From Candidatus Micrarchaeota archaeon (GTDB lineage Archaea; Micrarchaeota; Micrarchaeia; Anstonellales; Anstonellaceae): a DNA stretch of 64,000 nucleotides. Positions 22,212-38,004 of the stretch are shown in pieces. Position 1 is the first letter of the stretch; each line of letters starts with the position of its first letter. Position numbers and translations under genes: made by a program. The notes below the pieces were generated by a model, which searched no databases, was not told the DNA's origin, and saw only the letters and a program-made list of their open reading frames with translations. The DNA lies in the NCBI GenBank assembly GCA_026414185.1, contig JAOAJL010000003.1, positions 2,896 through 66,895 on the forward strand. Direction: 5' to 3'.

Positions 22212-22534
22212 AGCGGAGCGGCGGGAGGACGGCTCACCGCGCCTGACATAGGCGGGGAGGAAGTTCTGCCCACCGGAATGAATGCCTGAGCCGCTTAAGG
22301 CGGCATCGGGAACAGAAACGACAACTCCTTTGCGCAGATGAATATGACGAAAGGAGATGCGCACTGAGAAGCTGAAACGGCCCGTGCGCAGGCAGTTGAA
22401 GGTGCAAGGCCTTACGGCCGCTTTGCCCACTCCGCAAGGACGGGCAGCCGGGGCAACCCCGGTTTAGTCCAATGCCGTCTAAGGGCGCGCAAGCGCCCCC
22501 AAACAGAAGGCAGACTACCACCCGCCGCTCCGAT
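22212..22534 (+). ncRNA. rnpB: RNase P RNA (archaeal type A-like)
   Basis: P1 is a perfect 12-bp helix: CGGAGCGGCGGG (22214..22225) with CCCGCCGCUCCG (22521..22532). CR-I-like GGGGAGGAAGUUCUGCCC pairs with CR-V-like ACAGAAGGCAGACUA to give P4 with the conserved bulged U. An AGAUGAAU element and an ACAGAAAC element are also present. Length is about 320 nt. Confidence 0.8.
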
Positions 22535-35808: not shown

Positions 35809-36141
35809 CTATCCTTGCCGCACCACAATGCAGTAGTCGGCTTGCTTGTGGAGGAGGAAAAACTCGTTTTTCCCAAGCTGAAGCGCATCCTCTCCTATCT
35901 TCTGCGGAGGGCTTGCCGGCTTGCCGATGCGTATCCTTTTTTCCTTTTCATTCTCGCAGACAAGAACTGCGAGGGCAGGCCCTCCCCTGCTTACATAGTT
36001 TAGCAGCGCATCGCGCTTTGACCTGCCTGCGAACCTGACGGTTTTTTCATCCACCTTCACCAGCCTTCCGCGGCTTAAGGTTTCTATCCTCTCATTTACA
36101 GTCCCGCCTTTCCCAAGGACGCTTATCGCAGAAGTTGCCAC
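35809..36141 (-). CDS. hypothetical protein (110 aa)
   Basis: Clean ORF. There is weak resemblance of ISVLGKGGTVNERIETLSRGRLVKV to CRM/YhbY-type RNA-binding motifs. This is not a secure call. Confidence 0.4.
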   Translation of the reverse strand: MATSAISVLGKGGTVNERIETLSRGRLVKVDEKTVRFAGRSKRDALLNYVSRGGPALAVLVCENEKEKRIRIGKPASPPQKIGEDALQLGKNEFFLLHKQADYCIVVRQG

Positions 36142-36239
36142 TTTCCCACCCGTCCTTGTTTCTGTGCAGAAGCTATTTTAAGCCAAGCGCAGTGCGCAAG
36201 CGCAGGTTTATATACCACTTGCCTCCCTAACAAAGAAAG

Positions 36240-36587
36240 CTGTGCGCGGATGGCAGCAGGAGCCTTCAGGCAATGAGTCCCCTGTCAACAGCGCACCGCA
36301 CAAATGCGAAACATTTTGCGTGGTGGGGTCGGCAGGTCCGGAGCACCGCGCATTATGGCAAGAATATATTTCAAACGCGAAGAAAGCATCAAAGAATCAC
36401 AAAAGAAGGCGAAAGGCAGTTCACAGAAAGATTTTCACGCTCATTTCCGCCCTTCCTGAAAGGGCGGGGCAACCCGAGGTTGCTGAAAAGCCCGGCTTGG
36501 ATGCCGCGGCGAGCGCAAAATCTCAAATGAGCCGTCAAGGCAAAAGCAGTTGCCCTCTGAAGTAGGCGGCTGGAGAGGGATTTTTTC
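36240..36587 (+). ncRNA. candidate structured non-coding RNA(s), family unknown
   Basis: TATA-like TTTATATA at 36207..36214, about 25 nt upstream. Hairpins at 36294..36325, 36447..36467 and 36469..36483. An 8-bp closing helix pairs 36439..36446 with 36525..36532. A T6 run lies at 36581..36586. No credible ORF is present. Confidence 0.35.
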
Positions 36588-36726
36588 ATTCCCGCCATGC
36601 AGCCTGCCTTGAGGTGCGGCGAGAATGCGGCGAAGCCTCTTTGCGAGGCAAAGCCGGCAAGATGCTTTTTTCGTGTCTTGAAAACAAGGCAAAAGCCACA
36701 ATAGGAAAAAACCAAGGGTGAAAGCA

Positions 36727-38004
36727 ATGGGAAAGACTTACATTGACACTGTAAAATACCTTGTCTATGCGAACGTGGAGATAGACGGGCTTGTGGAAAA
36801 GCCCGACGTCGTAGGCGCGGTTTTTGGGCAGACCGAAGGGCTGCTTGGCGACGAGCTTGACCTGCGCGAGCTTCAAAAGAACGGCAGGATAGGCAGGATA
36901 GAGGTTGACTTGCAGCCCCGCGGCGGCCGCTCAGTCGGAAAAATAAAGCTACCCTCCTCGCTTGACATGGTGGAAACTTGCATACTTGCGGCGGCGCTTG
37001 AAACGGTGGACAGGGTCGGTCCATGCGAGGCGAAAATAGCGATTGAGAAGGTTGAGGACACCCGAAACGCCAAGCGCAAGGTGCTTGTGGAGAGGGCAAA
37101 GTCCCTCCTCAAAAGCCTGCTGACAAACGAGATACCCGAAAGCAAGGAGATATCTGAGATGGTCCGGCAGGAAGTCAAGATAGCCGAGATAGAGGAATAC
37201 GGACCGGAAAAGCTGCCCTGCGGACCTGGCATTGAAAAGGCGGACTCCATAATAATCGTGGAGGGCAGGGCGGACGTGCTCAACCTGCTGAAAAATGACA
37301 TCAACAACGTGATTGCAGTCGGCGGGGCAAACGTCACCGGCGCAATAGCAAAGCTGGCGCGCGAAAAGGAGGTGACCGTCTTCCTTGACGGCGACAGGGG
37401 AGGGGACATCATCCTGAATGAGCTGGCGCGGGTTGCTGACATTGATTTTGTGGCGCGCGCGCCGCCCGGCAAGGAGGTGGAGGAGCTTTCCAGAAAGGAG
37501 CTTATCAAGTGCCTGCGCGCCAAAGTGCCCTTTGAGCAGGGAAGCCAAAACGGAGAAAGGGACGAAAGAAGGGAGAGGGCAAGGCGCGAGCGCTTTGAGG
37601 AGCGGCAGAGGGAGAGAAGACGCGAGGAAGCAGAAGCCCAGCCTGCCTCTTTCCAGGAGCCTGCTTTGCAGGAGGTTCCTCTGCCGCCAAAAGAGGAGCA
37701 GCCTCAGCCGCAAAAGCCATCCGAAATCCCGCCAGCCCTCCTGTCCTCCCTTGATGAGCTTGAAAATACCCTTCGGGCGCGCTTTTACAATTCCGAGCTT
37801 GCGCTGCTCAAGGAGATGCCTGTGAGGGACATGATAAAGTCCCTTGACGAGCCAAACGAAGTCCACGCAATAGTGTTTGACGGGATAATAACCCAGAGGC
37901 TTGCCGACCTGGCGGAGGCAAAGCACGTCAGCATGCTTGTCGCAGTCAAGCTTGGCAACGTCTTTCGCAAGCCCGCAAACGTCCTGATATACACCAAGAC
38001 ATAA
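36727..38004 (+). CDS. dnaG: archaeal DnaG-type primase (TOPRIM; exosome-associated family)
   Basis: Starts at ATG 36727 (MGKTYIDTVKYLVYANVEIDG). TOPRIM motifs IIVEGRADV and FLDGDRGGD. There is a charged low-complexity insert at about 37540..37740. Confidence 0.9.
   Translation: MGKTYIDTVKYLVYANVEIDGLVEKPDVVGAVFGQTEGLLGDELDLRELQKNGRIGRIEVDLQPRGGRSVGKIKLPSSLDMVETCILAAALETVDRVGPCEAKIAIEKVEDTRNAKRKVLVERAKSLLKSLLTNEIPESKEISEMVRQEVKIAEIEEYGPEKLPCGPGIEKADSIIIVEGRADVLNLLKNDINNVIAVGGANVTGAIAKLAREKEVTVFLDGDRGGDIILNELARVADIDFVARAPPGKEVEELSRKELIKCLRAKVPFEQGSQNGERDERRERARRERFEERQRERRREEAEAQPASFQEPALQEVPLPPKEEQPQPQKPSEIPPALLSSLDELENTLRARFYNSELALLKEMPVRDMIKSLDEPNEVHAIVFDGIITQRLADLAEAKHVSMLVAVKLGNVFRKPANVLIYTKT

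Follow-up and report, generated by a model that had tools for sequence, protein, structure and literature searches.

A probable box H/ACA guide RNA and an unclassified four-way-junction RNA upstream of dnaG in a Micrarchaeota genome

What lies between dnaG and its upstream neighbour in a Micrarchaeota genome, where only low-complexity or antisense open reading frames (ORFs) are found? The gap in question occupies positions 36142-36717 of a 64,000-nt stretch of DNA (the window; contig JAOAJL010000003.1 of the Candidatus Micrarchaeota archaeon assembly GCA_026414185.1) and is bounded by a 110-aa minus-strand ORF (35809-36141) and by dnaG. The initial annotation took it for an ORF-free region holding one or more novel structured RNAs, and the gap itself proved real. 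As for its content, we consider it highly probable that it represents a small non-coding gene cluster, composed of a box H/ACA small RNA (sRNA) and a four-way-junction RNA, which is followed by a dead DUF167 gene. To the identification of the first RNA as a box H/ACA pseudouridylation guide sRNA, which is based on its sequence and on that of its relatives, we assign a probability of about 0.85. Its family is previously undescribed, yet of a known kind, the archaeal box H/ACA guides. Covariation supports both RNAs as structured, as had been proposed; the class of the first one, however, is not new, and it is for the second that the claim of novelty holds.

Anatomy and conservation of the first RNA

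The plus strand of the gap folds better than 100/100 dinucleotide shuffles (z = -4.97). A scan against Rfam, put forward as a check in the initial annotation, returned nothing at gathering score in the gap, and the matches at E <= 10 were at chance level alone (P9, 0.017; SNORA11, 0.49). In the rest of the window, Rfam identifies RNase P RNA at 22217-22529 and three tRNAs, and the signal recognition particle (SRP) RNA of this genome resides on another contig (C29). Given that no Rfam match was obtained, SRP, 5S, C/D and other Rfam classes were rejected for the RNAs of the gap. When the 576 nt were compared with 40 relatives, conservation was confined to two short pieces and to members of the genus: one piece of about 64 nt (36239-36302), shared by 18 genomes at 78-91% identity, and a weaker one around 36427-36471. 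The former corresponds to the first RNA, for which we propose the following parts.

36204-36214, plus strand: B recognition element (BRE)/TATA promoter AGGTTTATATA, predicted for the H/ACA sRNA from sequence and genus alignment
36239-36302, plus strand: probable single-hairpin box H/ACA guide sRNA, 64 nt, by covariance model (R1), covariation and synteny
36239-36247 (GCUGUGCGC) with 36291-36299 (GCGCACCGC), plus strand: lower stem of nine layers, with a U.C mismatch at the third
36248-36252, plus strand: putative 5' guide strand of the pocket, GGAUG; G36253 closes the pocket or lengthens the guide
36253-36285, plus strand: upper ('GA') stem with kink-turn (K-turn); 5' strand 36253-36259, 3' strand 36277-36285 with a 2-nt bulge
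36286-36290, plus strand: putative 3' guide strand of the pocket, CAACA; U36285 closes the pocket or lengthens the guide
36300-36302, plus strand: ACA box, directly 3' of the lower stem

How closely does this hairpin resemble an archaeal H/ACA guide? Its lower stem of nine layers falls within the 7-9 bp by which these RNAs are recognized; the third layer, U.C in the genus, is replaced by a full pair in other lineages. The pocket strands GGAUG(G) and (U)CAACA measure 5-6 nt each, which agrees with the size of an H/ACA pocket (about 5-8 nt for the 5' strand, 5-6 nt for the 3' strand). Above the pocket, the K-turn is built from the sheared pairs G36260.A36276 and A36261.G36275, a bulge AAU (36272-36274) and a C-stem GCC/GGC with the loop UUCA. 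Its signature GA...UGA (GA opposite NRU-GA) is invariant in the genus, and the GA is present in 57/64 members of the wider family. Judged by its sequence, this is the K-turn of an H/ACA sRNA, and it is predicted to be a site for L7Ae. The ACA box is positioned at a distance of 14 nt if counted from G15.U50 and of 15 nt if counted from C16-G49, in agreement with the 14-15 nt rule, and ACA or AUA follows the lower stem in 18/18 genus members (AUA in one genome). The rules for ACA distance and for fold types were established elsewhere (PMC2377435, PMC4652768). Two members of the family in which U50 is replaced by C still pair with G15, an indication that G15.U50 is able to serve as closing pair of the pocket. 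In archaeal H/ACA guides, about ten stacked layers (a helix H2 of 5-6 bp) separate the closing pair of the pocket from the second G.A pair. Here, the 5' strand of this interval counts 8-9 nt and the 3' strand 10-11 nt, and ten layers are reached only if bulged bases stack in, as proposed earlier for Pa105.1 and Pa19 (PMC4652768). If one or two of them do so, the putative sRNA would fit the '10/5/9' or the '10/6/9' fold type. In the oriented alignment, the genus consensus reads GCUGYGCGU-GGAUGGCAG-nnn-GA-GC(loop)GC-NRU-GA-nnnnn-CUGUCAACA-RCGCRCCGC-ACA, and TGTGCGGTGCG represents the reverse complement of the sRNA 3' end.

This anatomy departs from the initial annotation, which had found no H/ACA pattern in the region. 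For the helix UGCGCGG/CCGCGCA, thought to close the first RNA, relatives provide no support, and its 3' arm, at 36346-36352, is displaced by one base from the position given for it; the conserved closure is GCUGUGCGC/GCGCACCGC. Likewise, the element 'CCCCUGUCAAC', likened to an SRP Alu turn, instead comprises the 3' side of the upper stem and the 3' guide strand of the pocket.

Covariation supports the proposed fold. In the genus alignment (18 sequences), 98.8% of cells are paired, and double compensatory changes are seen at three pairs; in the lower stem 8/8 modelled pairs form, with an exchange between U-A and C-G at pair 5-60. In the alignment of 66 family sequences, 93.9% of cells still pair, and 11/14 pairs show compensatory changes, in 128 cells. 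A covariation as high was obtained in 0/500 shuffles, and slid controls were 15-42% paired. Family-wide, compensatory changes are found in 6/8 modelled pairs of the lower stem; the upper-stem pair 20-43 is seen as A-U, U-A, C-G and G-C, and the second pair of the C-stem covaries too. While the stems vary, the pocket strand GGAUGGC is present in 64/64 family members and GUCAACA in 63/64. Variable stems combined with invariant loop strands are the pattern expected of guide sequences.

A covariance model built from the sRNA (R1) scores 81.9 bits on the window (E = 1e-18). When run on 151 genomes of the order, representing 45 genera, it detects exactly one full-length copy in 116/151 genomes and in 36/45 genera. 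The location of the gene is equally constrained: among 80 Micrarchaeota dnaG loci fetched independently from GTDB genomes, 65 carry the sRNA on the dnaG strand, 82-1170 nt upstream. The TATA box TTTATATA at 36207-36214, pointed out in the initial annotation, is in place and conserved in the genus, with the BRE/TATA box about 24 nt before the sRNA 5' end in 17/18 members for which upstream sequence is available. Possibly, the box at 36204-36214 serves as promoter of the whole sRNA-(DUF167)-dnaG unit.

Two variations on the family were encountered. In some members, the apical loop is extended past the C-stem of the K-turn by an insertion of 35-50 nt, which yields RNAs of about 98-115 nt with an unchanged pocket (L019 of genome G015, 1419-1533; L213, L221, L196, L225, L235 and others). 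Moreover, R1 gives weaker second matches in some genomes (L116, G111:C3:78070-78130, minus strand; L117, G147:C126:1199-1261; L241, 2883-2950), which share the scaffold and have other pockets (UAAUGG/UUGAACA; GGAUGG/UUAACA). Probably, they represent paralogous guides of the H/ACA class that address other targets.

Predicted target, partner proteins and rival readings

Which RNA might the pocket address? The target site in 23S rRNA was read from the 23S sequences of congeners; in the 23S rRNA of one of them, GGAUG/CAACA finds one site, 5'-GUUG|UU|CAUCC-3'. In silico, nine contiguous Watson-Crick pairs (4+5) form there around an unpaired UU. Each of the relatives' 23S loci that cover domain V (7/7) contains a single copy of GTTGTTCATCC, on the rRNA strand, and the context of this sequence (..CAAAGGUUGGGUUGUUCAUCCAUUAAAG..GAGCUGGGUU..) is that of 23S helix 92, the A-loop, with the loop UGUUC. 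The first unpaired U of this site is equivalent to E. coli U2554, corresponding to yeast 25S U2923. The uridine modified by guides of this kind is the most 5' unpaired one (PMC7075261), and pseudouridine 2923 in the yeast 25S A-loop is guided by snR10 (PMC2879522). On the basis of complementarity, we favour the A-loop as the target, with a predicted pseudouridine at the U2554 equivalent, although with distinctly less confidence than we have in the class of the RNA. Pairing with the A-loop explains the invariance of G10-G11-A12 (64/64), for which pairing with 16S rRNA does not account.

We envision a scenario whereby the BRE/TATA promoter drives synthesis of a 64-nt single-hairpin sRNA, the K-turn of which would be bound by L7Ae, while Cbf5 and Nop10 (together with Gar1, if present) would bind the lower stem and the ACA box. 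By pairing with rRNA, the two invariant loop strands would then flank an unpaired UN dinucleotide, the U of which would be converted into pseudouridine by Cbf5. L7Ae (PF01248, E = 6e-29) and Nop10 are both encoded in this genome, and Cbf5 is found above the curated cut-off in 19/23 congeners.

Several observations weigh against a guide function or against the A-loop as its target. Neither Cbf5 (TruB family) nor the 23S rRNA gene, for which congeners had to stand in, was found in this assembly, which comprises 0.96 Mb in 35 contigs and is 87% complete; both absences are most likely assembly gaps. Gar1 was not detected here, using a model that also misses Sulfolobus in the control set. An ANA box is found at the aligned position in 37/64 members of the wider family, and 27/64 are without it. 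The conserved 2-nt bulge renders the length of the upper stem ambiguous, with 9 layers counted on the 5' strand versus 10-11 on the 3' strand, and the two pocket strands are complementary to each other (UGG/UCA; in the genus UGGCAG/CUGUCA). With regard to the target, the score of the A-loop in a search of 23S plus 16S rRNA was reached by 12/1500 composition-matched shuffled guides and by 37/1500 random guides, a modest significance of about 1-3% without correction for the choice between two registers. On the 3'-guide side, the duplex with the A-loop comprises just 4 bp, and this side is considered the most important one (PMC2377435, PMC7075261). Two papers that map pseudouridines, in P. abyssi and S. 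islandicus, name none in the A-loop (PMC2377435, PMC11077068); our literature search surfaced no pseudouridine map for the lineage studied here.

Could the same ribonucleoprotein (RNP) act elsewhere on the ribosome? A loop at the 16S 5' end, 5'-GUUGA|UC|CUG-3', is geometrically acceptable, and given its sequence we regard it as a possible, if tentative, target or co-target. The stricter proposal, that this loop is the real or main target, appears doubtful to us. It would place the modified U, equal to E. coli U17, in the strand forming the central pseudoknot, which the RNA might pseudouridylate or, like snR30 or U3, chaperone during 30S assembly. The duplex UCAAC/GUUGA comprises five Watson-Crick pairs and thus exceeds the 3'-guide duplex with the A-loop, but on the 5'-guide side just three pairs form, two of them G.U. 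Weak pairing of the 5' guide is also seen in functional guides of Pyrococcus (PMC2377435). The motif GTTGRTNCTGC is found at the 16S 5' end in 15/15 genus genomes that hold this end, and with a C-G closing pair the RNA would adopt a '10/6/9' fold, counted on the 3' strand, with ACA 15 nt away (PMC4652768). Precedents exist in that S. islandicus sR109 guides 16S-U8 (PMC11077068) and pseudouridine 27 of P. abyssi is located near the central pseudoknot (PMC2377435). Pairing with 16S would account for the invariance of U50 and G15, yet it leaves the 64/64 invariance of G10-G11-A12 unexplained. Moreover, the site would score 7, and scores of at least 7 are common among shuffled guides, while the additional CAG/CUG complementarity is genus-specific and not conserved in the order. 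Our first idea of a target, UGGCAG plus GUCAAC with CUGC(U/C)G plus GUUGA of the 16S 5' end, was demoted for this reason: CAG/CUG is conserved only in the genus and belongs, in the wider family alignment, to the covarying upper stem next to the pocket. Its weaker form is the 16S proposal considered here. A dual target in 23S and 16S would explain every position of the pocket but one.

Alternatively, the hairpin may not be a guide at all, but a K-turn cis element in the 5' untranslated region of the dnaG operon that controls dnaG when bound by L7Ae or another protein. Its same-strand position upstream of dnaG in 65/80 loci, sometimes at a distance of only about 82 nt, is in line with such a role, as are the K-turn signature and the missing ANA in 27/64 members. 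A regulatory K-turn, however, requires neither a 9-bp lower stem nor an ACA box at 14-15 nt, and has no need for two invariant single-stranded segments that match rRNA around an unpaired UN; besides, the ACA box is dispensable in typical single-hairpin guides (PMC7075261). We therefore deem a cis element very unlikely. Least credible of all is the view, held in the initial annotation, that the entire 580 nt encode one or more RNAs of wholly new classes. The lack of Rfam matches at threshold and the strong predicted folding speak for it, and the second RNA (36425-36526) is truly unclassified and covarying, but the first RNA bears the defining features of box H/ACA sRNAs, the long-range helices of that annotation lack conservation, and a DUF167 pseudogene makes up the 3' third of the gap.

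Other candidate targets were discarded. A second 16S site in helix 23 (UGUUGA|UC|CUGC) is present in this genome only and not in congeners. A scan of the whole genome with a canonical 6+6 pocket gave only chance-level matches inside coding genes, and scans of tRNAs, RNase P RNA and SRP RNA revealed no good site. Target-scan matches on small contigs were rejected as rRNA fragments, being not rRNA.

The 16S rRNA gene of this genome carries inserts. It lies on the minus strand of contig C2 (about 1-1912), runs off the contig end, and is split by an insertion of about 600 nt bearing a 209-aa ORF, for which Pfam gave nothing significant. A small hairpin insert is found in it in triplicate (C2:1183, 1044 and 63), with the conserved core CCAGTTTTTNGNAGGATGG(G/T)TGGC, a motif of which the genome holds no copy elsewhere.

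The second RNA and the path to dnaG

Besides the putative guide and its promoter, the gap and its borders contain the following.

36294-36352, plus strand: clade-specific hairpins that follow the sRNA, limited to the window and its nearest relatives (G018, G015)
36360-36371, plus strand: AT-rich, TATA-like box AAGAATATATTT, by sequence only
36425-36526, plus strand: four-way-junction RNA of about 100 nt, by covariance model (R2) and covariation
36537-36721, plus strand: decayed DUF167 (YggU, PF02594) gene, by DNA-level alignment to intact relatives
36727-38004, plus strand: dnaG (archaeal Toprim primase/exosome subunit), by Pfam Toprim hits; conserved downstream neighbour
35809-36141, minus strand: 110-aa ORF forming the left border of the gap; no Pfam match

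The second conserved piece of the gap folds into a four-way junction. Its closing helices are P1 (AGAUUUU/AAAAUCU, 36429-36435 with 36517-36523; genus core GAUUU/AAAUC) and P2 (CGCUC/GAGCG, 36438-36442 with 36511-36515; genus core GCUC/GAGC), and within them lie three hairpins: A (36447-36467), B (36468-36484) and C (36490-36510). The hairpins vary in sequence between genomes, and the joining strands AUUUCC, GGGGC and UGAACA are conserved. The sequence GCTCATTTCC occurs a single time in genus loci, on the same strand as the sRNA and downstream of it, and when the surrounding stretch of about 100 nt is folded as a single sequence, genome by genome, nearly all genomes yield the same four-way junction. 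The initial annotation had seen a three-way-junction-like fold with two hairpins; the hairpins exist, but the third one was missed. The strands that were proposed to enclose them, GCTCATTT (36439-36446) and AAATGAGC (36525-36532), are located as described, yet they do not close the fold: the helix GCUCAUUU/AAAUGAGC is complementary in this genome alone and is mutually exclusive with P1. Thus, examination of relatives upheld both RNAs by covariation, and neither of the two long-range closing helices originally suggested for them.

A covariance model of the junction (R2) was run over the 151 genomes of the order. It scores 71.1 bits on the window and matches in 14/23 genus genomes, in single copy and always just downstream of the sRNA. 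Outside the genus, there was one weak match in the 151 genomes, and none beside the sRNA in other genera. In the 14-sequence alignment, 95.4% of cells pair and 13/29 pairs are compensatory; 0/500 shuffles covaried as highly, and slid controls were 33-54% paired. Apart from the chance-level match to P9, Rfam offered no family for this RNA at E <= 10. The second RNA is, on this evidence, an unclassified and genus-restricted structured RNA.

How might the second RNA be made, and what might it do? The box AAGAATATATTT, already reported in the initial annotation, is present at 36360-36371 and is, by its sequence, a possible secondary promoter. It is not conserved in relatives, however: in one congener (G013) the two RNAs are just 24 nt apart, with no TATA box in between, which makes co-transcription of the second RNA from the sRNA promoter likely. 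Our best guess is that the junction acts as a structured leader for the (DUF167-)dnaG mRNA, or else serves as a boundary or in processing; it has been kept even where the DUF167 gene behind it is decayed. A more specific scheme, which we judge unlikely, is that the H/ACA sRNA has no gene of its own but is released by cleavage of the dnaG (exosome subunit) operon transcript at its 5' end, and that the junction represents a new cis riboregulator or a processing boundary. The junction might then sense a ligand or protein and switch via its invariant GCUCAUUUCC strand, for which there are two alternative partners, one inside the junction and the other in the GAGC-type ribosome-binding region that follows it. 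If this were true, a DPANN archaeon with a reduced genome would, through such a riboregulator, have linked the making of a guide for rRNA modification with the expression of its RNA-decay machinery.

Directly after the second RNA, relatives display conserved bases (AUGGCAACGGUAUUU...), which mark the start of a DUF167 gene. Two of them (G006 and G011) have an intact ORF of 88-91 aa between the second RNA and dnaG, which matches PF02594 with E = 3e-11 and 1e-9, respectively. The window aligns with this gene at the DNA level, but it carries AAG for ATG, an in-frame stop, a frame change and a loss of the 3' third. The GKAN core of the family ('GKA..L..LE') survives as GKAGKMLFSCLEN in a 35-aa ORF (36614-36721). 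The window holds no intact frame, tblastn of DUF167 on it found nothing significant, and no further DUF167 copy was found in this assembly; a close relative (G018) shows a similar truncation. The segment 36537-36721 is thus a pseudogene remnant and not a member of the DUF167/YggU family. Part of a supposedly ORF-free structured region has thereby turned out to be a dead gene. A conserved small protein gene, which the initial annotation had set against its own proposal, is accordingly present in part, as a degraded copy of a gene intact in relatives. The T6 runs at 36581-36586 and 36666-36671, which had been suggested to terminate transcripts, are present, but they lie inside the decayed gene, and an equivalent T run is found inside the intact DUF167 coding sequences of relatives. 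The start of dnaG itself is likely the ATG at 36727; 208 relatives of dnaG were confirmed in GTDB genomes, the best of which carry the label Candidatus Micrarchaeota/Anstonellaceae.

Between the two RNAs, the clade-specific hairpins remain to be placed. Hairpin 1 (36294-36325; CCGCACAAAUG-CGAAA-CAUUUUGCG), which the initial annotation had described together with other local hairpins, does form, but only in this clade; it overlaps and sequesters the ACA box. Hairpin 2 (36317-36352) has strands resembling the lower stem of the sRNA. Neither is detected by R1, and hairpin 2 was rejected as a second H/ACA unit, as it is without pocket, K-turn, ANA and conservation. The segment 36294-36352 could have arisen as a duplicate of the hairpin that has since degenerated, or could serve in 3'-end formation or termination. 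In G018 (L005, about 1555-1640), the motif CCGCACAAAUGCGAAAG is repeated.

Significance and relation to known systems

A literature search surfaced no H/ACA RNA from Micrarchaeota or other DPANN archaea. The family reported here would represent an H/ACA guide from Micrarchaeota, single-copy, widespread in the order and endowed with an invariant guide, and the covariance model R1 can be used to annotate its gene in hundreds of metagenome-assembled genomes. If the A-loop is indeed its target, then archaea with reduced genomes spend a dedicated RNP on a uridine of the peptidyl-transferase centre that eukaryotes modify with snR10, and this would bear on how old the individual pseudouridines of rRNA are and on which of them cannot be dispensed with. 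The fixed linkage of the sRNA to dnaG and the covarying four-way junction provide leads for studying RNA processing and regulation in genetically intractable organisms.

Yeast snR10 shares the predicted target with its 3' hairpin, namely the U that directly follows G2553 in the helix 92 loop, UGUUC (PMC2879522). It differs in being a two-hairpin eukaryotic snoRNA with an H box, without K-turn and with a second role in 18S processing. The common site may be ancestral or convergent, and homology is not claimed. The closest structural parallels are found among the archaeal single-hairpin H/ACA sRNAs of Pyrococcus (Pab91/Pf9; the '10/5/9' and '10/6/9' types of Toffano-Nioche et al. 2015). These likewise have a 9-bp lower stem, pocket strands of 5-6 nt, an upper stem capped by a K-turn, an ACA at 14-15 nt, their own TATA promoter, a length of about 65 nt and an rRNA target with an unpaired UN, the last of which is a prediction in our case. 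In contrast, there is no detectable similarity to them in sequence or by Rfam models, the RNA described here has a conserved 2-nt bulge on the 3' strand of its upper stem, and ANA is lost in about 40% of its wider family. Compared with the guides reported for P. abyssi, H. volcanii and S. islandicus, it belongs to another lineage (Micrarchaeota, DPANN) and has another predicted target. H. volcanii sR-h45 and S. islandicus sR109 are, as proposed here, archaeal Cbf5 guides acting on functional-centre sites of rRNA. However, sR-h45 has two hairpins and targets U2605 (between helices 90 and 93), U1940 and U1942 (H69), while sR109 is an 'atypical' H/ACA RNA with 16S-U8 as its target, at the 16S 5' end and hence close to the alternative 16S site considered above.

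The second RNA differs from known structured 5' leaders and four-way-junction RNAs in having no Rfam match, in its restriction to one genus and in being without a known ligand or protein partner. It nevertheless resembles them as a compact multi-helix junction placed just before the ribosome-binding site, in which the joining strands are conserved and the hairpin loops vary freely.

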